Below, piece after piece: positions 1 through 13,219 of a stretch of 14,009 nt of DNA. The position numbers were made by a program, and so were the translations under genes. The DNA is from Fibrobacterales bacterium (GTDB lineage Bacteria > Fibrobacterota > Fibrobacteria > Fibrobacterales > JAOPTW01): NCBI GenBank assembly GCA_051532055.1, contig JAOPTX010000073.1:1-14009 (forward strand), in the 5' to 3' direction. Positions within the stretch are counted from its first letter, which is position 1. The number at the start of each line of letters is the position of its first letter. The notes below the pieces were generated by a model that did not search any database, had not been told where the DNA came from, and worked only from the letters and a program-made list of their open reading frames with translations.

Positions 1-981
1 AGGCTTACTGCATCTGCTGGTATGTCTCTGCTATTAATTGCCCTCTGCCCTATCTTAGTATCAACCATTCATGAAGGCCGGATTGGGTGGTTTCCCTATG
101 CTTTTATTGCAATGCAATCAATTGGATTTTCAGTTGAGCGGCACATACTTCAGCTCAGCCAAGCCCTCCAGCACTTTACCCTCTACTCAATCATCTCATC
201 GGGAGCACGAATATTAAAATTCATCATGATATTCATGTTATATTATTTTGATTCATTACAGTTACTATCTACGCTCATGGCATTGATTGTCACTCAGTTC
301 ATCGCATTGATTCCCGGTATGGGCCTCATATGGAAATCTTTGACCACACCGACTGAAACCCAGTGGTTCACTGCTATTCTAACCTATTCTCGTTGGATCG
401 TCGCAACAGAAGCATCATTTTTTCTTGGTACTCGCGCGAACCTCTTTATGCTGAGTTCTTTTTTTGACGCTGCATTTATTGGGGCATGGGCACTTGCTGA
501 GACTATGATCCAAGCACTCACAATGGTCTCTCAATCAGTTAATGCGGTCTTTTCGCCTAAAGTTATATCCGCAAATACAACAGTATCAATGGCCTCCTGG
601 AAAAAGACAACATCCCTATTGTCAATAGTATATGCCAGTGTAATCGCCCTGAGCGCTCTCTGTATCGGACCAGTGATTATGAGTGCTGTCGGTGAAAGCT
701 ACACAGCAAGTATTACACTCTATACCCTGATGCTCCCTGCTGTATGGATAACCATGTCATCAACCTATTCAGTACTCTATTTGCATCGAGCAGGGGTTCC
801 CCACAGGCTCTTTTTTATGGAACTCGTTACCGCCTGTGGATTGCTGCTTGGAAATTCCATCTTTATCCCTTGGGGTGAACAGTATGGAGCTATTGCTGCA
901 GTGACGCTATCTCGAATGGCATATGGGGCATATGTAGTATACTATACCCGGAAAAGTATTCTCAACGAGACGAATCATTAA
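1..981 (+). CDS. Polysaccharide/oligosaccharide flippase (Wzx-like, MOP/MATE superfamily), 5'-truncated by the window edge
   Basis: The frame is open from base 1 (RLTASAG-M...), so the true start is probably upstream. The protein has many hydrophobic helices and Wzx-like segments (LTYSRWIVATEASFFLGTRANLFMLSSFF..IGAWALAETMIQ, VFSPKVIS, IFIPWGEQYGAIAAVTLS). It sits beside glycosyltransferase genes. Confidence 0.8.
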   Translation, partial: RLTASAGMSLLLIALCPILVSTIHEGRIGWFPYAFIAMQSIGFSVERHILQLSQALQHFTLYSIISSGARILKFIMIFMLYYFDSLQLLSTLMALIVTQFIALIPGMGLIWKSLTTPTETQWFTAILTYSRWIVATEASFFLGTRANLFMLSSFFDAAFIGAWALAETMIQALTMVSQSVNAVFSPKVISANTTVSMASWKKTTSLLSIVYASVIALSALCIGPVIMSAVGESYTASITLYTLMLPAVWITMSSTYSVLYLHRAGVPHRLFFMELVTACGLLLGNSIFIPWGEQYGAIAAVTLSRMAYGAYVVYYTRKSILNETNH

Positions 982-1997: not shown

Positions 1998-3170
1998 TTA
2001 CAATCGATCACCTACAACCTTCTGTATCTGGTTCATAAGGATAGTCCGATTATACTGTTTTAAAAATCGACCTTTTGAATTTTCTGCAATCTGTTTCCAT
2101 TCAGTACTATTTTGTAACACTCGAACCACATGCTCAGCAAAAACGTCTGGAGTATCCGCAATCAATAAATCATTACCATTTTTAAAGTTCAATCCCTCCG
2201 CTCCCTTTTTAGTACTCACCACTGGAAGCCCTACTCGTGCAGACTCTATTATTTTAATTCGGGTCCCCGACCCCATTCTGAGTGGTACAATACTCAACGA
2301 TGCCTCATTAATCACTGCCCCAACATCAGGTACAAATCCGGTGCAGTAAGCCCCTTCAATACTTTCAACTTTTTTCAAAAGCGAAGCATCCGGGTCTTTA
2401 CCAACTATTGCAAATCTAACTCTCGGTATCTGTTGCTGTATCGTAGGATATATCTGGTCCAGAAAAAAATGGCAGGCATCGATATTGGGGTGCCAATTCA
2501 TAGTTCCACTGTATACAATAAGGGGATTTTGATCGTTGAACGCGACCTCAATATCGTTACTCTGTGCTGCTTCAGCACAGGTATTTTCAATTATTTTACA
2601 TTTTTTCTGTAGCCCTTCATCAAGTAATAGTTTGTCTACTGCACTACATACACTCAAAATAGATGCTCGGTACATTGCATTATTTTCGTATACAGCCAAT
2701 TTACCAACCTCTTTTTTAACAAGAGACTTCATAAAAGTACGCTTATATTTATGTTCATATTCTTGGTATATAATATGTTCAATATTATGTTGATCCAGCC
2801 ATATAGGTACCGGGCACTGATGAGGAACATTAACAATAGCAGGAAGTGCTTCAGCTATGATCAAATCATACCTATCTCTATTGATAATAGAAGAAAGAAA
2901 TTGGGTGACTCTGGTATTCTTAAATCTCTGTACATACACTGATTTTTTGTTAGAAAGCGCAGCCTGAATCATAGCAAGACGTGACCATCGGTTTTTTTTA
3001 AATAGAAAAACCTGATTAAAAATGGCTGGCAATTGTTCACCTTCATACTCTTGTATAAGCATATCTACGGTGTGTGTGTGCGCAAGTGCCTCAATGAAGA
3101 GTGAATTTCTAACCGCTACGCCACTGGTCTTAGGAAATGGCGAGTGATTGCTGATGATAAGTATCCGCAT
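1998..3170 (-). CDS. Glycosyltransferase family 4 (GT-B); start revised to MRILIISNHSPFP (390 aa)
   Basis: N-terminal MRILII...PFPKTSGVAVR, IWLDQHNIE, YSGTMNWHPNIDA, and VPLRMGSGTRIKIIESARVGLPVVSTKKGAEGL, typical of EPS-associated GT4s. GGAGG RBS lies just upstream of the ATG at 3170, whereas the ORF-track start at 3290 is deep inside the upstream gene. Confidence 0.9.
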   Translation of the reverse strand: MRILIISNHSPFPKTSGVAVRNSLFIEALAHTHTVDMLIQEYEGEQLPAIFNQVFLFKKNRWSRLAMIQAALSNKKSVYVQRFKNTRVTQFLSSIINRDRYDLIIAEALPAIVNVPHQCPVPIWLDQHNIEHIIYQEYEHKYKRTFMKSLVKKEVGKLAVYENNAMYRASILSVCSAVDKLLLDEGLQKKCKIIENTCAEAAQSNDIEVAFNDQNPLIVYSGTMNWHPNIDACHFFLDQIYPTIQQQIPRVRFAIVGKDPDASLLKKVESIEGAYCTGFVPDVGAVINEASLSIVPLRMGSGTRIKIIESARVGLPVVSTKKGAEGLNFKNGNDLLIADTPDVFAEHVVRVLQNSTEWKQIAENSKGRFLKQYNRTILMNQIQKVVGDRL

Positions 3171-4254
3171 AAGTCCTCCGATATATGTCATGGGTAAGGG
3201 CATGTTGTATTTCCGCATCAAAGTCTCTCTGTACCAAATATCGTAACGTTTGCCCCATACGTTCCATATCTTTTTTGTGTGAACAGGCATATTCCATACA
3301 CGCTCCGAGCCCCTCTACGTCTTCTGATTCAAACAGCAGTCCAGTCTCGTGATCAAATATTATTTCTCTCGTACCAGAAACTGCACTTGCTATGACGGGT
3401 TTTCCCCATTGACTTGCTTCAAGGACAACCAAAGGAAATCCTTCAAATCGTGATGGTAGTATCAGTACATCGATCTCATTAAAAAAAGCCTCAATCGACT
3501 CTACATGCCCAAGAAAAGTTACCTGATTATCAATGGAAAGTAACTGAGATAGATCATGAAGCGAAGTTTCCAATTCGCCAGAACCACCAATGAGCACTGA
3601 ACAATTTCTTCCCTTTTGTTTTAAAATATTGACTGATTTCAACATTACATCAACCCCTTTCTGATGTGAAAGCCTCCCTAGAAACCCAAACCGAATAGGT
3701 TGTTGTTCCAATAGTTCTTTAGATTCCTTTTCAATTGGCTCTATTCCATTGTATACAACAGATATTTTCTCTTCGGGTACCCCCTTATAATACATATAGT
3801 GTAATGCCACTGCTTTTGAAACAGCTATATAATGAGTAACGCAACTCCAACCAAGTAACGTATCAAAAAGATAGAACAGCTTCTTTAGTCCCTGTCTCCA
3901 ATTATCCTCTAGGTGAATCGTTTCAAGAATAACCGGTATACCTGCCAATTTACCCATTGGCCCTCCTACACGAGTTGCAGGGTAGAGCTGACAATGTAAT
4001 ACGTCGAGTCTACATTTTTTTAAAAGAGTATAGAATGACCACACCCCCTTGACATCAAATAAACTCCTTGGGGCACCCCCATAAATTGTTACCCCTGTAC
4101 AATCATTGAGTTCTTCTATAATTCTCATTTTCAAAATTGAGGTACAAAAAATAGTAACCTGATACCCCTTGAAATAGGAGTTTCGCACAAGATCCATAGT
4201 ATGTGTTTCAACTCCCCCCCATTCTATTCCATTAAGCAAATGTCCTATGTGCAT
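3130..4254 (-). CDS. Glycosyltransferase family 4 (GT-B, RfaB/PimA-like); start revised to MHIGHLL
   Basis: WGGVE N-terminal motif, VVYNGI, FLGRLSHQKG, EX7E motif PSRFEGFPLVVLEA, and GKPVIASAVSGTREII. AGGAGG (4265-4260) is 5 nt before the ATG at 4254. Confidence 0.92.
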   Translation of the reverse strand: MHIGHLLNGIEWGGVETHTMDLVRNSYFKGYQVTIFCTSILKMRIIEELNDCTGVTIYGGAPRSLFDVKGVWSFYTLLKKCRLDVLHCQLYPATRVGGPMGKLAGIPVILETIHLEDNWRQGLKKLFYLFDTLLGWSCVTHYIAVSKAVALHYMYYKGVPEEKISVVYNGIEPIEKESKELLEQQPIRFGFLGRLSHQKGVDVMLKSVNILKQKGRNCSVLIGGSGELETSLHDLSQLLSIDNQVTFLGHVESIEAFFNEIDVLILPSRFEGFPLVVLEASQWGKPVIASAVSGTREIIFDHETGLLFESEDVEGLGACMEYACSHKKDMERMGQTLRYLVQRDFDAEIQHALTHDIYRRTYADTYHQQSLAIS

Positions 4255-4263
4255 ACACACCTC

Positions 4264-5286
4264 CTAAACATTTTTACAGAGCTGTTTCCAGCTCGAATAC
4301 ATATTATGTTCAAACAACTCATCTGGATTAAAGAACTCCTTTAATGCTTCTCTTCTGATGACCGCCGATGGTGGTAATATCAACCCAAAGTGTGAACCGA
4401 TATATAAACTAAGAAAAGGAGCATGATATACATCTCGCAAATAATGCGTAAGAGTACTTATCCTTGATCTTGATTGCATATAGTTTTGATAAGCAGATTC
4501 AGTATTAACGGGTTTATCATCGATACCCATACATTTCCAAAACACTTCACTTATAGTAATTTTCAACACATCTACATACTTTTGGAAATTCTTCGCTATT
4601 TGTGAATAGACAGCTCTATCGCCCGTCAGTTTATAGCGTAATGCACTACAAGCATACTGTTCAAACAATTCCTGTCTTTGAGTATTCTGAAACCCCCTGT
4701 TTAAATACCCCTCGTCAATCCAGCTATATCGTTTCCGGTATGATGCCGTATAGCAACCGCGATGTAACATTTGTATTGATACAACATCACAATATAATTT
4801 GACTAATGAATAAGGGTCCTTTCGATTATTAAACTCCACAATCCGATTTGTCAATAAATCAATAAGATCATTATCCGGAATTGCCTGTCCTCTAAAACGC
4901 AAAAAATGATTAAAATTATTAGCACCTGAACTCCAGAGAACTCTATTATACTCTGCCGCGTCGATAAGCCACTGTTTTGGTGCAAAGCTTATAAAAGTCT
5001 TTTCGATTGTACCTGATATCGATACATCTATTGTAATCCCTTCATCAAAATAAAGAGCAGCTTGTATGTGAGAAATAACCTCCTGAATATTCTTGTCATC
5101 AGAAATAAGATAGCACTCCACATCGCTTCTCCACTCCCCTGACACACTATCTATTGTCAATTCACCACGAGCCGCACTTCCTATTAAATAAAAGGTATGC
5201 CAATGCTCTTCGGTGCACTCCTGCTTCACTATAGATGTAATCAGACTTAATTGTTCATCTATGAGATATCTATTATTCTGCTGCAT
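4264..5286 (-). CDS. Pol-beta-superfamily nucleotidyltransferase-like protein with helical C-terminal domain, function unknown; start revised to MQQNNRY (340 aa)
   Basis: FYLIGSAARGE...WRSDVECYLI fits the hG[GS]...Dh[DE]h NTase signature, with a candidate third acid in ITIDV. A GAGGT RBS precedes the ATG at 5286, which overlaps the GT2 stop by 14 nt. Confidence 0.7.
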   Translation of the reverse strand: MQQNNRYLIDEQLSLITSIVKQECTEEHWHTFYLIGSAARGELTIDSVSGEWRSDVECYLISDDKNIQEVISHIQAALYFDEGITIDVSISGTIEKTFISFAPKQWLIDAAEYNRVLWSSGANNFNHFLRFRGQAIPDNDLIDLLTNRIVEFNNRKDPYSLVKLYCDVVSIQMLHRGCYTASYRKRYSWIDEGYLNRGFQNTQRQELFEQYACSALRYKLTGDRAVYSQIAKNFQKYVDVLKITISEVFWKCMGIDDKPVNTESAYQNYMQSRSRISTLTHYLRDVYHAPFLSLYIGSHFGLILPPSAVIRREALKEFFNPDELFEHNMYSSWKQLCKNV

Positions 5287-6523
5287 AAGTGACCTCGAGT
5301 GTATTGGTATCACTTTTACCCCATAAAACTGATTGCTCAGAAAATAGGTATTTACTAAAACCAACCATTGATGCCACATTTGTAATAGTAAAATACAGTG
5401 GCAAAGCACAGGCCTTCTGGAGCATGCGATTGGGCACCCCTATCATCCCGAGCCCTGCAAGTGCATAGAACAGTACTTGCGCACCAACAAAATAAAGATA
5501 TCCTCCATAAAAAAAGGAGAGTATCACACTAACCACTAGAAGTATAGGCAATAAAAACCCAGATAAACTCCGTAGTAATTTATGTGAAACCAGTTGCATA
5601 GCAGTAAAATACTGGTGTACCTTTAATAGTTGCGGTATTTCAGGGATCATTTGAAAATTTCCCATTGCAATTCTACATCGTCTCGAAAATTCTCCTTGTA
5701 CATCGGTGTCCACATACTCACAGGCTACCGCCTTAGGTTCACTATGTACATCAAAGCCTTTTTCTATGATTTGTAGTGGTATAAAGAAATCATCATTTAC
5801 AATATTCTCCTTCCAAACAATTGTTTTAAACAAATCTTTACGAACCGCATAGAGGGCCCCTGTTGCATGTGTTGTACTACGCAAATCACTTTCTAACTTT
5901 CTAATACCCATTTCATATCGCCAATATATCCCTTCTCCACTTCCTCGAGAAGAGTGAAATTTATTGACCTTTTTATAAACTCCAGTAACACACCCAACAG
6001 AGCTGTCCCTAAAATGACCAATGAGATGATCAATGGTATGGTGTCCAATCATAGCCGCAGAATCTGAAAACACAATGATATCACCTTCAGCTTGTTCAGA
6101 TGCTTTAATCATTGATTTAAGTTTTCCTAACCGTTCCGGATTATGAATAACAGAGATATTTTGAGAAACATGTTTAGTAATCTCTTCACCAGTAGTATCA
6201 TCAGAACAATCATTTACCATAATCAGACTCAATTTAGGAGAAGCATAGGTCAAAGACTTAAAGTTGTGAACTTTTTCTCTAATCACGCCTGCTTCATTGT
6301 AACAGGGAACTATCATGGTTACTTGTGGATCATTTTTTAATATACGTCGTTGCACTCCATTGTTAAAGGCCTCACGTAGTTTCTGTAAGTAATCTGACGA
6401 ATGCAACATTCGTCGAACTACAGAATGTTTTGCACACCAAAGTAATATTGGATAGAGTACATATACATATACTAAAATCCCCATACCCGTTACAACAATT
6501 CCATTTAAAATATTGAGTGTCAT
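5273..6523 (-). CDS. Membrane glycosyltransferase family 2 (cellulose-synthase-like / PgaC-IcaA-like group)
   Basis: N-terminal TM helix; IVPCYNEA, VNDCSDDTT, GKLKSM, IVFSD, YWRYE, TGALYAVRK, NDDF and EFSRRCRIAMG (QxxRW-position variant); C-terminal TM helices after SHKLLR. RBS AAGGAG, with an ATGA overlap with the wecA stop. Confidence 0.92.
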   Translation of the reverse strand: MTLNILNGIVVTGMGILVYVYVLYPILLWCAKHSVVRRMLHSSDYLQKLREAFNNGVQRRILKNDPQVTMIVPCYNEAGVIREKVHNFKSLTYASPKLSLIMVNDCSDDTTGEEITKHVSQNISVIHNPERLGKLKSMIKASEQAEGDIIVFSDSAAMIGHHTIDHLIGHFRDSSVGCVTGVYKKVNKFHSSRGSGEGIYWRYEMGIRKLESDLRSTTHATGALYAVRKDLFKTIVWKENIVNDDFFIPLQIIEKGFDVHSEPKAVACEYVDTDVQGEFSRRCRIAMGNFQMIPEIPQLLKVHQYFTAMQLVSHKLLRSLSGFLLPILLVVSVILSFFYGGYLYFVGAQVLFYALAGLGMIGVPNRMLQKACALPLYFTITNVASMVGFSKYLFSEQSVLWGKSDTNTLEVTYAAE

Positions 6524-7674
6524 ACTTTCTCCTTAATTGAAGTGATAATATCTCTATTTTTTTTATTCTGTAGCATACCTGCCCTCCCATTAAAAAGAGT
6601 CGAGCGGAATACAAATCGTGACTGATTGAATGTCAATTCCTCATCCAAACGATTTTGGGTATTTTTTGAGTTACTTTGATTACGTTCCAATAGAAACAAT
6701 ACTGCATAGTTCACAGAATAAAAAAGGACGCCCACAGTAGCTGCTACCGCTACAGAGTACCGGTTCAACAGAATGATAAGAATCAGACTCCACAGCGCAC
6801 TTATTATGCCAATGCATTCCACCGTATTACAATGTCCCAAAAACACCTGTACCCGATGGTGTATATGATTCCTATCTGGTTTCATTATTGAATGTCCATT
6901 CATAGCTCTTCTTAGCATAACAACCCCAACATCAACAACAGGTATAGAAAGCAACAAGGGCATCCATCCTACTACCACAGATAGCGAACTACCATTTTGA
7001 TTCTGTATCTGTGCAAAAAGCCAAAATAGAACACCACCCATCCACAATGAGCCCGCATCTCCCATAAACATTTTGGCAGGGTGTGTATTTATAAGAATAA
7101 ACGGAATGCAAGCCACCATTGCATAGAGACTATATTCCGCAATTGGTGTATTCCCCCCGGAAACCCCCAGGTACATTACTACTGCGAAGAGCGAGAGACT
7201 CATACGTACTGCTAATCCGTCGAGTCCATCAATAAGATTCATAGAGTTTATAGCTCCAATGCCTACAACAGTATAAAAACCCCATGAGAGTATGAATGTA
7301 GCCAGAGAGCTATATGACTCCCCGACTAATGCATCAAAACAGATAAGCTGTATTGCTGCACATTGAAAAAGCAATTTAATTGAAGACCGCATTCCTTTTG
7401 CATCATCTATTAAACCAACAATAAATAATAAATACAGCCCAGTGATCGAAAACCAATAACGGTGGAGCTCTTCGATAATCACAAACCCGTAAGACATACC
7501 CGCACACAATATTAATCCACCAAGATACGGTGTCACCTTACCATGTAATTTCCTTTTCCGGTCTGGTTTGTCTACTATGTCAAACCTCTTTGAAATCCAA
7601 AATGCTATAGGAATTGTTATTAAACCAACGCCTATAACGCCTAATATTCTCAATACTGTTTGTGTACTATCCAT
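6520..7674 (-). CDS. wecA: Undecaprenyl-phosphate alpha-N-acetylhexosamine-1-phosphate transferase (WecA/TagO, MraY family); start revised to MDSTQTV (384 aa)
   Basis: DKPDRKRKLHGKVTPYLGG, GLIDD, NSMNLIDGLDGLA, NTHPAKMFMGDAGS and PDRNHIHH (WecA-type HIHH). GGAGG RBS at 7683-7679. The sigma54 promoter at 7712-7697 argues against the 7731 TTG start. Confidence 0.9.
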   Translation of the reverse strand: MDSTQTVLRILGVIGVGLITIPIAFWISKRFDIVDKPDRKRKLHGKVTPYLGGLILCAGMSYGFVIIEELHRYWFSITGLYLLFIVGLIDDAKGMRSSIKLLFQCAAIQLICFDALVGESYSSLATFILSWGFYTVVGIGAINSMNLIDGLDGLAVRMSLSLFAVVMYLGVSGGNTPIAEYSLYAMVACIPFILINTHPAKMFMGDAGSLWMGGVLFWLFAQIQNQNGSSLSVVVGWMPLLLSIPVVDVGVVMLRRAMNGHSIMKPDRNHIHHRVQVFLGHCNTVECIGIISALWSLILIILLNRYSVAVAATVGVLFYSVNYAVLFLLERNQSNSKNTQNRLDEELTFNQSRFVFRSTLFNGRAGMLQNKKNRDIITSIKEKV

Positions 7675-7696
7675 ATTCCCTCCACAGGTAGCGTAT

Positions 7697-7712
7697 TGCA
7701 AAATGAGTGCCA
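7697..7712 (-). promoter_or_regulatory. Sigma54 (-24/-12) promoter of the wecA-to-DGC operon
   Basis: The minus strand reads TGGCAC-TCATT-TTGCA, an exact match to TGGCAC-N5-TTGCW. The predicted +1 near 7686 lies just before the RBS and ATG of wecA. Confidence 0.88.
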
Positions 7713-7757
7713 ATCTATTTGAGTTCAACAAACGGCTCGTTTGGCTATATACCGATT

Positions 7758-7807
7758 TTAATTTGAGTTATTAGAGTGTCATTTTGATTGAGTACTTTCA
7801 ATTTGAG
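7758..7807. promoter_or_regulatory. Putative upstream activator sequences: three phased TCA-WWW-TGA-like boxes
   Basis: TTAATTTGA (7758), TCATTTTGA (7779) and TCAATTTGA (7798), spaced 21 and 19 bp, centred between the two sigma54 promoters. Confidence 0.5.
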
Positions 7808-7860
7808 AGTCAGATCACTTCTAAATATTAATTACTTGCCCGTTGTTGCTCAAATAGTAG

Positions 7861-7876
7861 TGGTATGAAATTTGCA
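7861..7876 (+). promoter_or_regulatory. Sigma54 (-24/-12) promoter of the phosphodiesterase-fold gene
   Basis: TGGTAT-GAAAT-TTGCA has the invariant GG and GC at exact spacing. Predicted +1 near 7887, followed by AGGAGG (7897-7902) and the ATG at 7908. Confidence 0.8.
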
Positions 7877-7907
7877 ACATCAAGCCATAAGGGATTAGGA
7901 GGCACAT

Positions 7908-9125
7908 ATGAAAGGTATTACATTACATTTTATTATTGATGGATTAGGATGGGACATAGCATCTGAGTGCAGCACATTTTCATTTCTCAATACTCACTAT
8001 CACGAGCTTGAAACGGTACTTGGATTTAGTTCTTCGGCGATCCCTTCTATTTTAACGGGGAAAATGCCTGATGAGCATGGTCAAGGCAATCTTTTTTATA
8101 AAAGTAAAAAGAGCAGTTTTCCTTTTTTTAAACTCTACCCATTATTGCCTCGGTATCTGAGGTCTGATAATATTCCTTCAAAAATTTTGAAAAAAGGAGG
8201 ATTACTTTGCAACAAAGCCATCACTGGTTTTGAAGGATATTATCAAGCCTATGATTATCCTGTTGATCAACTCGCTACTATTGCAATTTGTGAAACAAAA
8301 AATATATTCGCCCCTCATGGTGTTTCCGGGTCGAAAACTATTATTGATACCTATACTGAAAGTAATACCAACTGGAAGTGTTATTCATATAAACAGGGGC
8401 CTGATACACAACTCCTAAAAAATCTTATTGCAGACTGTACCCAAAGTTCTGTAGAGCATTGTCTGATATATTTGTGCGAATATGATGCATTTGGTCATTC
8501 ACATGCCACAAATAGATCACTCATGATTGAAAAAGCAAATGAATATGGTCGTGCCTTACACCGTATCTATACCAAACTTTCTGAGCACTATTCTTCTGTA
8601 CAAGTCACTGTCTGTTCAGATCATGGTATGGTTCCGTTGCAAAAAACCGTAGATATTCAGGCTCTGCTCAATGCCAATAACCTCCTTCGCCCAAAAGACT
8701 ATGACGTTATACTCGACAGTTCTATGGCTCGTTTTTATGTCACCGAAAAGGGGGTGGAGTCTGAGATAATGAAGGCGCTGGCACATACCCCCGGTCGATT
8801 TTTAACTAAAGAGGAAATAGAGTACTATCATATTGATTTTAACGGAAAATATGGTAATCTCTATTTTTTACTCGATTCAGGGGTACAAATTTCGCCCAGT
8901 CATATGGGTAGAAAACCCTGCAATGGTATGCATGGTTACGATCCGGTAGATCCTCAAATGAAAGCAGTATTCATGAGTAATTACCCAATAACTGATCCTC
9001 CGAAAAGTATTTGCGACATGCACAGCGTATATAAGAAAACATTGGAGGCTACCACCCCTGTACACTTCCCCAAAAAGATATATGCACCGCTCGGATTTCC
9101 ACCTCAAACTCATCCTATTACTTAA
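7908..9125 (+). CDS. Alkaline phosphatase superfamily protein (type I phosphodiesterase / nucleotide pyrophosphatase-like), apparently cytoplasmic
   Basis: Metal-ligand motifs FIIDGLGWD, YDAFGH, CSDHGM and GMHGYDP; nucleophile helix GFSSSAIPSILTG. No signal peptide or TM segment. Strong AGGAGG RBS. Confidence 0.9.
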   Translation: MKGITLHFIIDGLGWDIASECSTFSFLNTHYHELETVLGFSSSAIPSILTGKMPDEHGQGNLFYKSKKSSFPFFKLYPLLPRYLRSDNIPSKILKKGGLLCNKAITGFEGYYQAYDYPVDQLATIAICETKNIFAPHGVSGSKTIIDTYTESNTNWKCYSYKQGPDTQLLKNLIADCTQSSVEHCLIYLCEYDAFGHSHATNRSLMIEKANEYGRALHRIYTKLSEHYSSVQVTVCSDHGMVPLQKTVDIQALLNANNLLRPKDYDVILDSSMARFYVTEKGVESEIMKALAHTPGRFLTKEEIEYYHIDFNGKYGNLYFLLDSGVQISPSHMGRKPCNGMHGYDPVDPQMKAVFMSNYPITDPPKSICDMHSVYKKTLEATTPVHFPKKIYAPLGFPPQTHPIT

Positions 9126-9132
9126 GCTCTTC

Positions 9133-9161
9133 TTGACACTTACACAAATGAACAGTATACT
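9133..9161 (+). promoter_or_regulatory. Sigma70-type promoter for the signalling cluster
   Basis: TTGACA (9133-9138), a 17-bp spacer and TATACT (9156-9161), located in the gap between the phosphodiesterase stop and the REC-HDOD start. Confidence 0.8.
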
Positions 9162-9186: not shown

Positions 9187-10368
9187 ATGAATCACACAAT
9201 ACTCTTTGTCGATGATGACCCTTCAATTCTCAACGCCTTAAGGCGGGTGTTTCTCTTTAGTGATTATTCTGTCCATTGTGCACATTCTGGAAAAGAAGGA
9301 TTAGACATTCTAAAACACCACCAAATAGATTTAGTCATATCCGATTTTCGTATGCCGGAAATGAATGGGTATCAATTTTTAAATGAAACAATGAAGGTTT
9401 CACCACTTTCCATGCGTGTCATTCTCAGTGGTTTTATGGATAAAGACAACATCCTCAAATCTGTGATTAATGGTGTCGCCCAAAGTTACCTATTCAAGCC
9501 CTGGGATAATGAACAACTCCTTGCCTATATTCAGCATCTATTTTCAATTTATGCTACCCTAAAAAAGGCAGCCATTATCACACAACTCAATCTACCCAAA
9601 CAACTCCCCGCACCACCTCAATTATATGTAGAGCTTAATACTCTCATATCAGAGAATTCATCCCTCGAAGAAATTACTGAATGCATCGAAAAGAACCCAA
9701 CGTGTTGTACCAATATTTTACGAATCACCAATTCTGCAGTGTATGGAATGGCTACAACCAATATTCAGAAGGCGATTTCATTTATAGGGCTCAATGCACT
9801 TCGGGATATTGTTTTTTCAACAACCATTCTAGACACTACTGAAACAAAAAATAATTCTCAACTACCTTCAGATATCATTGAACACCTTATTGAAGTAAAC
9901 ACCCTGTTTAATGCCCTCTATAAATATTTCAACAATACCCCCTTAAGTACCGACCTCCGTACCCTCGGTTTCTTTCATGATATTGGAAAAGTATTTATGT
10001 GTATGATTTTTCCACAGCCCCATCCATCTGATTCATCCATAGTTGCACTCACCTCTGAGAGTGAACAGGAACTCTTTGGAATAGATCATGCACTTCTCGG
10101 CGCTGCAGTTCTCGACTGGTGGAATTTCCCTTCATATGCAATTGAGGTATCGCTCTTTCATCATAATCCGCTCCACCCCGACGTATATAATAAAGATATC
10201 ATTGGCTATATCGCCCTAGCCAATACACTCTCTGATAGTCCAACCTATTCCACATTTACCGAGACTCTTGATCCACAGCTCCTCACCTCTCTCTCAATTT
10301 CAGAAAAAGACCTCTCCACCTGTATTATTGAACTACATACAAATAAATTATATCAAGGTACCTTATGA
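9187..10368 (+). CDS. Response regulator with HDOD output domain (REC-HDOD); start revised to MNHTILFVDDD (ATG 9181 is an alternative)
   Basis: REC motifs ILFVDDD, LVISDFRMPEMNG, ILSGF and KPW. HDOD motifs LPAPPQ, IEKNP..ILRITNSAVYG, IQKAISFIG, FFHDIGK and EQELFGIDHALLGAAVLDWWNFP. The ORF-track start at 9082 lies upstream of the sigma70 promoter and inside the previous gene. Confidence 0.92.
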   Translation: MNHTILFVDDDPSILNALRRVFLFSDYSVHCAHSGKEGLDILKHHQIDLVISDFRMPEMNGYQFLNETMKVSPLSMRVILSGFMDKDNILKSVINGVAQSYLFKPWDNEQLLAYIQHLFSIYATLKKAAIITQLNLPKQLPAPPQLYVELNTLISENSSLEEITECIEKNPTCCTNILRITNSAVYGMATTNIQKAISFIGLNALRDIVFSTTILDTTETKNNSQLPSDIIEHLIEVNTLFNALYKYFNNTPLSTDLRTLGFFHDIGKVFMCMIFPQPHPSDSSIVALTSESEQELFGIDHALLGAAVLDWWNFPSYAIEVSLFHHNPLHPDVYNKDIIGYIALANTLSDSPTYSTFTETLDPQLLTSLSISEKDLSTCIIELHTNKLYQGTL

Positions 10369-11249
10369 AACACGCCATACTGATTGTTGATGATGAACCG
10401 GGAATACTCAAATCTCTACAACGAGTATTTCTCGATGAACCCTATACGGTTGATACGTGTGATCGTGGTGAGCAAGCATTAAAAATGGTTCGTTCGAATA
10501 AATATAGCATCATTATATCTGATGTTAATATGCCTCAAATGAATGGCATTGATTTTTTAAGTCTCGCCCGTGAATCTTCACCAGACAGCATCCGCATTAT
10601 ATTATCTGCATATTCCGACCTTACAACGGTATTGGACGCTATAAATAGAGGCAATGTCTGGAGATATATCACAAAGCCATGGGACAATACAGAGTTACTG
10701 ATTACCGTTAAAAATGCAATTGAACTTTATGAAGTAACCGCAGAACGCAACAAGCTCATTCTAGATTTAAAAGAGCTGAATAGTTCTCTTGAATATAAGG
10801 TCACAGAACGGACCCATGAAATTGAATCCATAAACTCGATTCAAAGTATGTTACTACAAGGAGAAAGTAGTGCATCAATTCTTCCACTCATACATTCCGA
10901 ACTACAACGTATTTTCCCAGATACTACTATTGCAGTGCATAACCGCTCCACTAATCAATGGTATCCAAACTCCAAGGAAGAATTTAAAACAGAAAAATAC
11001 ATGCAGGAATACTACCAAAAATCAATGCCCATTATTTCTAAAAATGAAGCAATTGTCCCTTTATCGTTTATCGATTCCACTCTCGGTGCCCTTCTGATTA
11101 CTCATCTAAAAGAAATGAGTTTCGATCAGACACTCCCCCATTATAAAGCTCTTTGCTCAACTCTTTCATTAGCATTATCACTTGAAGACCTCTCAAAGGA
11201 TTCATCCAGCCTCATTCATGCCATAGATGATATTATCGGTAATATGTAA
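10365..11249 (+). CDS. Response regulator: REC + signalling helix + GAF-like C-terminal region, no recognisable catalytic or DNA-binding output
   Basis: ILIVDDE, IIISDVNMPQMNG, ILSAYS and KPW; S-helix-like LEYKVTERTHEI; C-terminal AIVPLSFIDSTLGALLI resembles a GAF hairpin. ATGA overlap with the upstream gene. Confidence 0.85.
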   Translation: MKHAILIVDDEPGILKSLQRVFLDEPYTVDTCDRGEQALKMVRSNKYSIIISDVNMPQMNGIDFLSLARESSPDSIRIILSAYSDLTTVLDAINRGNVWRYITKPWDNTELLITVKNAIELYEVTAERNKLILDLKELNSSLEYKVTERTHEIESINSIQSMLLQGESSASILPLIHSELQRIFPDTTIAVHNRSTNQWYPNSKEEFKTEKYMQEYYQKSMPIISKNEAIVPLSFIDSTLGALLITHLKEMSFDQTLPHYKALCSTLSLALSLEDLSKDSSSLIHAIDDIIGNM

Positions 11250-13219
11250 TGAATTCAACAGGTACTCATAAGATACTCCGCACTACTGATTATGCTGCAT
11301 ACATCAGTAAACCGAATATGGATATTTCGGAGAGTATCATCTATGACTATTTAAAAGGCCATGGAGTAATCACTGGAATCGACTCCAAGGCTATTACATC
11401 AATCATTCATTCTAATACAACCAATGAAAACAGTACACCAACCGTTGTAGCACGTGCACAGCTTATATCCTTAGAAATAACGATACAAGGTATATCGCTC
11501 TCATTAAATGATTCTTCTCTGAAGGAGTTCATCGATTCCCTCTCAGTACCATACGAGTTTATTTCTCACTATTATGCCAATCACACATGTCTCCTTTCAA
11601 ATCGTCCAGAGTCAAACTATTTTATAGAAAAAAATAATACCATACTCAGTGTCAAAAAAAGACATCAACTTCAATCAATATTCAATGAAACCATTACCGG
11701 AACTGATATCGCTTTTTGGCTCCCTGCCTCTACAGCAATTCGTATTAAGGAGACAGACGAATATATACACTATATTGCTGATATATCTGGATATCTTAGT
11801 TATGATGGGTCAGGCTTAACAATTGTAAGCCCTATAGTTTCAACCTATGATTCAACAGAACTATCATATATCTGCTTTCCTACAAAAAATCAACCCGAAA
11901 TGATTTCCCATTTGAGCAAAGAACTCGCAGCACAATCTCCTGATGCAAATAGAGAAAAGAAAATTGAGTCCGTCATAACGAATCTCAATAACCATCAACT
12001 GTACATAGCAATCCTCAAAACGGGTAAAGCACCGGTGCATGGTCAAGAGAGTATATTACGTATTAAAGTAAAGCAAGCCTTCAAGCCTCAAGAGAATGAA
12101 CGCTCCATCAATTATAGAGATATTACTCCATACCAACCTATTACTACAGGAACCATTATCGCAGAACTCCTCCCGGGGTTCCCTTCACAATCAGGAATAG
12201 ATATCAATGGTAATACAATAGAAGCCCCACCTGTTTCCATTATTTCATTTACTTCAAATAAAAACGTATTGGTAAAACAGAAAAACGGTACACAGGTGTT
12301 AATTGCAAAAATTTCAGGTGTGCTCGATCTTGATGATACTCATGCTGACGTCATGCCAACGCTTATTATTGATGGAGATGTTAACCAAAAAACCGGGAAT
12401 ATCTCACATGATTCTGCTATTATAGTGAAAGGGTCGCTCACGAGTGGGTTTTCCATATCCACTCCATCAATAGTTATTATTGAGAATAGTATTGAAAAGA
12501 ACAGCGCCATTAGCTGTAAACACCTCACAGTAATAGGGGGTATATCTGGCCCCCTGAAAAATGTTTCACTTTCGGGAAACCTAACAACAGGCTATATTCA
12601 AAATTGCACCCTGAGGCTACCAGGCTCTCTACTCGTATACAAGTATATATTCAACTCAAACATATTTGCCCACACCAGTATTACTGTACAAGGTAATTCC
12701 ATGCGTGAAGGTAAAAAAGGTTGTGTTATTGGTGGGGTCCTCAATTGTTTTCACTCTATAGCGCTCCATTCTGCTGGCTCCTCTTTAGAAAAAACAAAGA
12801 TCATAGCCGGAATAGATAATACATTACTCGAACAATACCAAAAAGTACTTCTTACTCACCGCTCATTGGTACTCGCTATTCGCCAACATCAAAACTCAAA
12901 CACCGGGTATTCTCTTGATGCCTTAACCCCCTCTTATTTAGCCTCCCTGGATGGAGCGACTCAAGCACGCATAAAGGACAGGCTTATAACCTTAAAAAAG
13001 ATTTTGTACGACAAACAGCAGCTCGAGAAAACAATGGCCATGTTACAATCACGCTTACACAATCCATTAAAGTCGCCACCAACTATTCACATTATGAAAA
13101 GAATCATACCTGATACCCATATACAAATTTGTCAAGCACATCATACCATCACAAAAGAAGAATACACCACAACCTATACCCTTGTTCAAAATTCTATAGA
13201 GTCACAATCTCAAAAATAG
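11249..13219 (+). CDS. DUF342 / FapA-family protein with N-terminal extension
   Basis: YLKGHGVITGID, GKAPVHGQES, INYRDI, GTIIAELLPG..GIDINGNTI, IDGDVNQKTGNI...IIVKGSLTSGFSI beta-solenoid region, VIGG, AGS...TKIIAG and a C-terminal coiled coil. TAATG overlap with the upstream gene. Confidence 0.85.
   Translation: MNSTGTHKILRTTDYAAYISKPNMDISESIIYDYLKGHGVITGIDSKAITSIIHSNTTNENSTPTVVARAQLISLEITIQGISLSLNDSSLKEFIDSLSVPYEFISHYYANHTCLLSNRPESNYFIEKNNTILSVKKRHQLQSIFNETITGTDIAFWLPASTAIRIKETDEYIHYIADISGYLSYDGSGLTIVSPIVSTYDSTELSYICFPTKNQPEMISHLSKELAAQSPDANREKKIESVITNLNNHQLYIAILKTGKAPVHGQESILRIKVKQAFKPQENERSINYRDITPYQPITTGTIIAELLPGFPSQSGIDINGNTIEAPPVSIISFTSNKNVLVKQKNGTQVLIAKISGVLDLDDTHADVMPTLIIDGDVNQKTGNISHDSAIIVKGSLTSGFSISTPSIVIIENSIEKNSAISCKHLTVIGGISGPLKNVSLSGNLTTGYIQNCTLRLPGSLLVYKYIFNSNIFAHTSITVQGNSMREGKKGCVIGGVLNCFHSIALHSAGSSLEKTKIIAGIDNTLLEQYQKVLLTHRSLVLAIRQHQNSNTGYSLDALTPSYLASLDGATQARIKDRLITLKKILYDKQQLEKTMAMLQSRLHNPLKSPPTIHIMKRIIPDTHIQICQAHHTITKEEYTTTYTLVQNSIESQSQK

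Follow-up and report, generated by a model that had tools for sequence, protein, structure and literature searches.

A candidate two-enzyme module of a nucleotidyltransferase and a phosphodiesterase-fold protein in bacterial polysaccharide loci

The 14,009-base contig JAOPTX010000073.1 of a Fibrobacterales bacterium (assembly GCA_051532055.1; genome of 5.17 Mb, 94.4% complete), which was analysed over its entire length and is called here the window, raises the question of what a candidate nucleotidyltransferase does in a polysaccharide operon, and why that operon is transcribed divergently from the gene of a phosphodiesterase-like enzyme. The first protein, NT (340 aa; 4264-5286, minus strand), is encoded among glycosyltransferase genes; the second, AP (405 aa; 7908-9125, plus strand), is an alkaline-phosphatase-superfamily enzyme. 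Our results make it very probable that NT and AP form a real, conserved, polysaccharide-linked module of two enzymes, and this module probably provides a nucleotide-dependent step, uncharacterised so far, in the making or the control of surface polysaccharide. Exopolysaccharide and capsule loci have been heavily mined, yet the pair has no name: NT lacks a Pfam or NCBIfam model, AP has only the generic PF01663, and a full-text literature search found no publication on the pairing.

Linkage of the NT and AP families

The linkage was analysed in the best 80 of 123 tblastn-confirmed stretches carrying AP, drawn from one-genome-per-species contigs (the AP loci). A profile made from 17 NT sequences detected 52 open reading frames (ORFs) among 6,594, distributed over 51 of the 80 loci, and the iterated profile placed an NT-family ORF in 54 of them. 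With the same NT profiles, only the gene of the window was recovered among the 12,155 ORFs of its own genome. The two genes are adjacent and co-directional in 19 loci, with gaps that range from -12 to 86 bp.

The families were also counted in whole genomes; note that relatives are not independent samples in these co-occurrence counts. Among 201 evenly drawn PVC-group genomes, from the Victivallis phylum (threshold E<=1e-10), NT was found in 44 and AP in 45: 43 genomes carry both, one carries NT only, two carry AP only (both partial matches) and 155 carry neither. One of these genomes matches by construction, its NT being a row of the query alignment. The cultured Victivallis vadensis DSM 14823 has homologues of both proteins (L060). 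Fourteen of the pairs are neighbours, including one with the divergent arrangement of the window, and 14 are >100 kb apart or on separate contigs. The filtered counts for 201 Planctomycetota genomes were 15 for NT and 15 for AP (both 12, NT only three, AP only three), and the raw counts at E<=1e-3 were 29 and 25, respectively (both 13, NT only 16, AP only 12). The filter dropped 14 genomes in which the NT match covered only the ~100-residue core of the minimal nucleotidyltransferases (NTases), mostly in short open frames, together with 10 genomes with partial AP matches (E above 1e-8). Searches of 60 genomes from the order of the window, among them a same-genus genome that is 91% complete, gave no member of either family.

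In two Planctomycetota genomes a single gene product joins an N-terminal AP to a C-terminal NT; these fusion proteins are 788 and 785 aa long (hhalign probability 99.6% for AP and 99.0% for NT). Since the two fusion proteins are 61% identical to each other, the fusion is not an assembly accident. A word-index search for longer, fused AP proteins gave none, and both fusions came from the genome searches. The initial annotation had proposed that the pairing would lose its basis if the two families occurred independently across genomes. This is clearly not the case: the families are co-localised, co-occurring, co-absent and fused, and they are co-inherited as tightly as the subunits of one machine. 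Note that the predicted AP-NT complex scored 0.11 (mark 0.32), a value that counts neither for nor against.

As for the fusion proteins themselves, they keep the metal ligands, and GFAPG replaces the GFSSS of the family. A radical-SAM/SPASM gene follows one of them and also neighbours unfused pairs in loci L048 and L054. Other candidates were rejected. L062 had been considered as an NT-AP fusion, but its NT is frameshifted or mis-assembled, with only the first ~78 residues in frame with AP; the two ORFs that precede AP in L050 were discarded as NT (hhalign probability 0.1%). A count made with the narrower alignment A3, in which NT was present in only 4 of 10 AP genomes without a nearby NT, was superseded by alignment A6 because A3 missed known copies. 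In the metagenome-assembled loci L024, L041, L073 and L079 frameshifts or assembly errors split the AP gene into two frames, and in L062 they split the NT gene.

Folds and active sites of NT and AP

NT matched no Pfam family at E<=0.01, no NCBIfam model and no PDB sequence at E<=10. An exhaustive phmmer search of 1.84 billion representatives recovered, at E<=1e-3, the query and 16 other proteins; a word-index search recovered no relatives, and a metagenome scan with NT alignment A5 gave 132 pattern stretches, none of which was confirmed. The structural model of NT is confident (AlphaFold pLDDT 92.1, pTM 0.90). Its top match is the aminoglycoside O-nucleotidyltransferase (ANT) ANT(3'')(9) (7uy4_B; Z 13.8, rmsd 3.3 over 216 residues, model range 5-252, covering both domains), followed by ANT(9) (Z 12.0), and ANTs came first both in Foldseek and in an all-against-representatives structural search. 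Minimal NTases (Z 8.4-10.8) and ANT(4') appeared among the lower matches, and HEPN domains matched residues 135-256.

In the 17-sequence alignment G36, S37, E42, D55, N147 and K163 are invariant, and E57 and R148 nearly so. Over 76 NT-family sequences, with gaps left out, position 55 is D in 68 of 72 and position 57 is E or D in 71 of 72; the third acid, in the strand at about residues 87-89 (D87 in the protein of the window), is D or E in 57 of the 69 sequences aligned there. The hG[GS] motif, the [DE]x[DE] motif, the third carboxylate and the fold, by which the Pol-beta superfamily is recognised, are all present in NT. As modelled, NT appears to be an active nucleotidyltransferase of the Pol-beta type, to which a HEPN-like acceptor domain and an additional helical tail are attached, and represents an undescribed family.

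Like the aminoglycoside/lincosamide O-nucleotidyltransferases (ANT(3'')(9)/AadA, ANT(9), ANT(4')/KNTase and LinB), NT joins a Pol-beta NTase core to a HEPN-like helical acceptor domain and carries the GS and DxE/D motifs plus the third acid. Unlike these enzymes, with which its identity is 9-13%, NT has ~80 extra C-terminal helical residues and the family-specific N147-R148 and K163, and it occurs in polysaccharide loci, paired with a phosphodiesterase, and not in resistance contexts. LicD, fukutin and FKRP also have the NTase fold and modify glycans via phosphodiester chemistry, using CDP-alcohol donors. For NT they are a functional analogy. NT has no Pfam match to LicD at E<=0.01, none of these enzymes is among the 50 best fold matches, and no gene for the synthesis of a CDP-alcohol donor is conserved beside the pair.

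AP matched PF01663 over profile positions 4-342 of 342 (60.7 bits against a cut-off of 23; E 2.5e-16), and matched no NCBIfam model. A total of 141 relatives were found, and 39 sequences were aligned for residue conservation. In these, D11, S41, D193, H197, D238, H239 and H342, corresponding to six metal ligands and the Ser nucleophile, are invariant, and a family-specific insertion at about residues 66-125 carries an invariant FxGYYQxY motif. The AP model is also confident (pLDDT 92.9), and its best 50 Foldseek matches are all nucleotide pyrophosphatases/phosphodiesterases of the NPP/ENPP type (E down to 1e-17, TM up to 0.69).

The six metal ligands of AP match in order and spacing those of the NPP/ENPP enzymes (Xac NPP, ENPP1-7 and snake-venom phosphodiesterase). 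AP differs from them in its ~60-residue insertion with the FxGYYQxY motif, in a sequence match to Xac NPP of only E 0.013, and in its nucleophile, Ser, where the NPP/ENPP enzymes usually have Thr. It also differs in its predicted location. The hydrophobic N-terminus expected of a secreted or ecto-enzyme is absent from AP, whose N-terminus begins directly with the strand bearing the metal ligand D11; neither a signal peptide nor a membrane segment was found in the protein, and its maximum 19-residue Kyte-Doolittle hydropathy is 0.83. Similarly, NT has no signal peptide or membrane segment, none of its 19-residue windows reached 1.6 (the maximum being 1.40), and both proteins are predicted to be soluble.

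These data agree with the initial annotation in that NT is an NTase (a GS...DxE motif in an ANT-like fold), that AP belongs to the alkaline-phosphatase superfamily (PF01663, with an intact bimetal site) and that both proteins look cytoplasmic. They depart from it in the precedent that it had chosen for AP. LtaS, EptA and BcsG, and also OpgB, have the superfamily and the covalent-nucleophile chemistry in common with AP, and decorate glycans or lipids with phospho-alcohols. However, these PF00884-type enzymes are membrane-anchored and act outside the cytoplasm, whereas AP has the NPP/ENPP fold, no PF00884 match and no membrane segment, and none of them appears among the listed fold matches.

Genomic settings and possible chemistry of the pair

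The neighbours of the pair across the 80 AP loci were GT4 glycosyltransferases (51), Poly_export (44), GT2 glycosyltransferases (30), FemAB-like proteins (26), chain-length determinants (23), tyrosine autokinases (21), Bac_transf (21), Wzy-like proteins (20) and AAA ATPases (14), with Wzx also present. The usual setting of the pair is a Wzx/Wzy-type exopolysaccharide cluster. The gene order varies: GT4-GT2-FemAB-AP-export-chain length/kinase-NT-Wzy in the Binatia type, export-ATPase-kinase-NT-AP-initiating transferase-GT4-GT4 in the Eisenbacteria type, kinase-NT-Wzy-MT-GT4-GT2-AP-GT1 in L028 and GT4-GT2-AP-NT-GT1 in L038. In the window and in the Fibrobacterota locus L003 the order is wecA-GT2-NT-GT4-GT1, divergent from AP, so that NT lies between GT2 and GT4. 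In addition, a Bacteriovoracaceae-labelled genome encodes a 786-aa fusion of a GT4 with an NT-like domain (L091:283-2643, plus strand; hhalign 97%), followed by a polysaccharide deacetylase gene. We also observed partner-switching-type genes directly adjoining AP or NT in PVC-group and Bacteriovoracaceae genomes: HATPase_c_2-GAF-SpoIIE (L043:7099-8973), SpoIIE-HATPase_c_2 (L092:22-1095) and STAS (L050:5027-5410).

The related loci resemble XrtA/PEP-CTERM systems in that the top NCBIfam hits of their genes belong to families of the XrtA system, namely the export protein, chain-length determinant, tyrosine kinase, ATPase, FemAB, ligase-like, stp1 and stp2 families. Unlike in those systems, all such matches, in the related loci and in the window, fall under the family cut-offs, and exosortase PF09721 had no match in the genome of the window (94.4% complete). 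Sigma-54 control of the XrtA/PEP-CTERM system has been described (Haft et al. 2006, PMC1569441), and the text of this founding paper contains no phosphodiesterase, phosphatase, pyrophosphatase or nucleotidyl term (PMC1569441).

By analogy with the enzymes to which NT and AP are structurally closest, we tentatively favour a scheme in which the two would act successively, in a nucleotidyl-dependent, two-step modification of a lipid-linked glycan; the chemistry is only a proposal. NT would act like an ANT and transfer a nucleoside monophosphate (NMP) from a nucleoside triphosphate (NTP) to a glycan hydroxyl, with release of pyrophosphate. The acceptor would be an undecaprenyl-diphosphate (Und-PP)-linked sugar or repeat unit at the inner membrane face. 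AP, as a binuclear-metal NPP-type phosphodiesterase with a Ser nucleophile, would then attack the newly made phosphodiester, with one of two outcomes: either the nucleoside is expelled and a phosphate or a phosphodiester bridge stays on the glycan, or the NMP is removed again. The usual machinery would finally take over the modified glycan for elongation, flipping and export.

The two folds are compatible with this chemistry, because R-O-P-O-nucleoside, which an ANT-like enzyme produces with NTP as its donor, is just the kind of diester that an NPP cleaves or transfers. A lipid-linked glycan is favoured as the acceptor because of the cytoplasmic location of both proteins, the glycosyltransferase, initiating-transferase and flippase neighbours, and the GT4 fusion, and this two-step modification is ranked first because tight co-translation favours successive steps over antagonism. 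The initial annotation had placed the step before Wzx flipping. The cytoplasmic location and the related loci speak for this timing, and they alone do so, since no flippase (wzx), polymerase or export gene is present in the 14,009-base window. Its further suggestion that NT activates a substituent is not supported; in the enzymes structurally closest to NT, NMP goes straight to the hydroxyl of a sugar or of a protein.

Several observations weigh against this two-step modification of a glycan. No NT was detected in 26 of the 80 AP loci, 18 of which have <6 kb on one side. Both AP-NT fusions (L099:3-2369 and L100:783-3140, both on the minus strand) have Ala in place of the Ser nucleophile, and the DxE motif of the GT4-NT-like fusion appears degenerate, one catalytic acid being seemingly absent. 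In the PVC group AP or NT is sometimes located beside SpoIIE/HATPase_c_2, STAS or histidine-kinase genes, and some of these AP or NT genes lie outside any polysaccharide cluster. We know of no precedent on glycans for phosphorylation via nucleotidylylation and nucleoside removal, and such a route is costlier than phosphorylation by a kinase. A co-expressed writer and eraser would make a futile cycle and, therefore, the NMP-removal branch needs extra regulation. Moreover, the computed data cannot separate a glycan acceptor from a protein or a nucleotide acceptor. Finally, NT lies directly downstream of a tyrosine autokinase gene in 14 loci and of a chain-length/tyrosine kinase fusion in another 14 (28 in total), with overlapping stop and start codons in L035.

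This last arrangement would fit a regulatory role, which we consider unlikely, in which a Tyr, Ser or Thr residue in a component of the assembly machinery is nucleotidylylated by NT, the most plausible targets being the tyrosine autokinase/co-polymerase and a glycosyltransferase, and AP removes the NMP, thereby switching polymerisation and export. NT has the Pol-beta writer fold of the AMPylation systems, and the protein AMPylators GlnE (Z 10.0), DrrA (Z 8.6) and MntA are among its fold matches; those of AP include snake-venom phosphodiesterase and ENPP1. Snake-venom NPP-type phosphodiesterase removes NMP from adenylylated proteins in vitro. Signalling genes also neighbour the pair, both in the window (a response regulator (RR)-HDOD gene, a second RR gene and an RR-GGDEF gene) and in PVC genomes. 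However, the best whole-length structural matches of NT are small-molecule sugar O-nucleotidyltransferases and not protein AMPylators, and no kinase gene adjoins the pair in the window, L003, L038, L048 or L054, the two kinase genes of the window's own genome being on other contigs. A writer so tightly coupled in translation to its own eraser would also be unusual. In the GlnE and DrrA (with SidD) systems the adduct is erased by a second NTase domain or by a PP2C-like protein, unlike the NPP partner seen here, and the targets are metabolic or host proteins.

The same signalling neighbours would suit a nucleotide signal, a role to which we give little credence: NT would make a nucleotide or oligonucleotide messenger, tuning polysaccharide as cyclic di-GMP (c-di-GMP) does, and AP would degrade it as ENPP1 degrades cGAMP. 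The initial annotation had offered, as its alternative, that the two enzymes may make and hydrolyse a nucleotide. HalB, an oligodeoxyadenylate synthase, is among the fold matches of NT together with the minimal NTases, ENPP1 with cGAMP or pApG is among those of AP, and the degenerate copies (fused to GT4 or with the Ala nucleophile) could serve as receptors. Against this, HalB matches less well (Z 9.2, TM 0.29-0.36), and the ANT match covers both domains of NT, the second of which overlies the acceptor-binding domain of those enzymes. No receptor or effector was identified, and the pair lies inside biosynthetic operons, often among glycosyltransferase, flippase and initiating-transferase genes.

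An initiating transferase (BacTransf or WecA) is encoded in 23 of the 80 AP loci, and AP adjoins it in the window, in L003 and in many type II loci. This proximity would be consistent with housekeeping of the carrier lipid or of precursors, in which AP acts as an editing pyrophosphatase on stalled Und-PP-sugars or nucleoside-diphosphate sugars, and NT either re-activates the freed sugar phosphate or takes part in some other, unrelated step; both enzymes would belong to one pathway and have separate substrates. NPPs do hydrolyse the pyrophosphate bonds of nucleotide sugars, an NPP3-UDP-GlcNAc entry is among the fold matches of AP, and in some loci and genomes AP was detected but NT was not. We regard this role as improbable: the near-perfect co-occurrence in the Victivallis phylum (43 genomes with both against 3 with a single one) and the fusions argue for a shared substrate and, to our knowledge, Pol-beta NTases are not known as sugar-1-phosphate nucleotidyltransferases.

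Considering glycan modification and regulation of the assembly machinery together, the pair could be an unrecognised route by which surface polysaccharides are decorated or controlled via a nucleotidyl intermediate, although this remains rather doubtful. NMP would be placed on a lipid-linked glycan or on the assembly machinery, the NPP-type enzyme would convert it into a phosphate or phosphodiester bridge or erase it, and the degenerate fused copies would be binding modules. The route would then be present in at least eight phylum-level groups with no annotation that names it; the pair was seen in PVC bacteria, Planctomycetota, Eisenbacteria, Binatia-type, Fibrobacterota, Thermodesulfobacteriota and Gemmatimonadota-labelled genomes. 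If a phosphodiester is indeed installed or edited via a nucleotidyl intermediate, this would be a new glycan tailoring chemistry and would suggest a native use of the aminoglycoside adenylyltransferase fold. If the pair writes and erases on the assembly machinery instead, it would add a new layer of control beside tyrosine phosphorylation and c-di-GMP.

Promoters and gene order of the window

Two sigma-54-type -24/-12 promoters are predicted between the divergent operons. The first, TGGCAC-N5-TTGCA (7697-7712, minus strand), faces the wecA operon (ATG at 7674, with a GGAGGG ribosome-binding site in between), and the second, TGGTAT-N5-TTGCA (7861-7876, plus strand), faces AP (ATG at 7908, ribosome-binding site GGAGG). 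In each case a ribosome-binding site and a start codon follow at a distance of 20-30 nt. The pattern TGGYAY-N5-TTGCW has exactly these two matches in the 14,009 bases, against a chance expectation of 0.08, and none of 200 shuffles had two or more. Both promoter regions align over ~40 nt, from upstream through the -24/-12 elements and in mirror orientation, the upstream half at 7713-7736 (minus strand) being an inverted copy of that at 7838-7860 (plus strand). The combination of this upstream module with a sigma-54 site is unique in the 5.17-Mb genome despite its 85 sigma-54-like sites, and the module is possibly an activator or architectural site. The genome encodes rpoN (395 bits, above the cut-off) and has 14 full-length matches to the sigma-54 activator family, none of them inside the window.

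The twin promoters with a common upstream motif, from which the initial annotation had the two operons diverge, are therefore borne out by two exact sites and the mirror module, and both operons are predicted to be under sigma-54 control. Judged by its sequence, the window would thus have captured the module in a small sigma-54-controlled island, whose two flanks are wecA-GT2-NT-GT4-GT1 and AP. This control is not a general trait of the module, because the exact TGGCAC-N5-TTGC occurs in only 5 of 95 loci, the window's own included. One metatranscriptome contains three short contigs that match the window, at 1920-2070, 4982-5152 and 12293-12538, with DNA carry-over being possible; note that the parts of the window without contig cover carry no meaning. 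In the syntenic locus L003 a one-mismatch sigma-54-like site, TGGCAC-N5-TCGCA, lies upstream of AP (L003:8437-8560), and a hydrophobic mini-ORF of 22 codons is located between this site and the AP start.

The minus-strand operon begins with wecA (6520-7674; PF00953), which encodes the initiating enzyme, a WecA/MraY-family polyprenyl-phosphate sugar-phosphate transferase with ~10 hydrophobic segments. It continues with a membrane-anchored family-2 glycosyltransferase (GT2; 5273-6523), whose top NCBIfam match, PgaC/IcaA-like, is under its cut-off, and with NT, whose start at 5286 gives a 14-nt overlap with the GT2 stop; a longer ORF reaching 5409 is unlikely. The GT4 (3130-4260) begins 3 nt past the NT stop and is stp2/TIGR03088-like (127 bits against a cut-off of 409), and the GT1-type glycosyltransferase (1998-3290) is stp1/TIGR03087-like (145 bits against 317). 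The RR-GGDEF diguanylate cyclase (982-1980), 17 nt past GT1, is probably the final gene of the operon. All six genes are on the minus strand and are separated by small gaps or overlap. A convergent ORF of 319 aa (22-981, plus strand), with 5-6 hydrophobic segments, faces the end of this operon; it has no Pfam or NCBIfam match and no relative across the 80 AP loci.

On the plus strand AP is followed by RR-HDOD, a second RR, FapA and a periplasmic-binding-protein gene. A near-consensus sigma-70-type site, TTGACA-17-TATACT (9133-9161, plus strand; 11 of 12 positions), is situated downstream of the AP stop and ahead of the probable RR-HDOD start and, therefore, the downstream regulators may have their own promoter and not depend on the AP transcript. 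Note that neither terminators (8 against 8.7 expected) nor sigma-70 sites (52 against 48) are above chance in the window. The second RR (10365-11249, plus strand) overlaps the adjoining RR-HDOD and FapA genes at its two ends, and its C-terminal output region of ~170 aa (residues ~120-294) has no Pfam family.

Positions 1-62 of the window are 98% identical to a contig end in the same-genus genome G001, possibly as a repeat at a contig break or as an island boundary; elsewhere the window has with that genome only a 46-base match at 85% identity (1322-1367). Other contigs of the window's own genome carry two export/kinase loci and a Wzy-like gene. The latter is on the 3-kb contig C120 (L095:447-2743; E 4e-38 to the Binatia-type Wzy), which also has an ORF homologous to L003:2-1477 (E 1e-57), the flanking gene of the syntenic Fibrobacterota operon. 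C120 is thus probably a detached piece of the same polysaccharide system.

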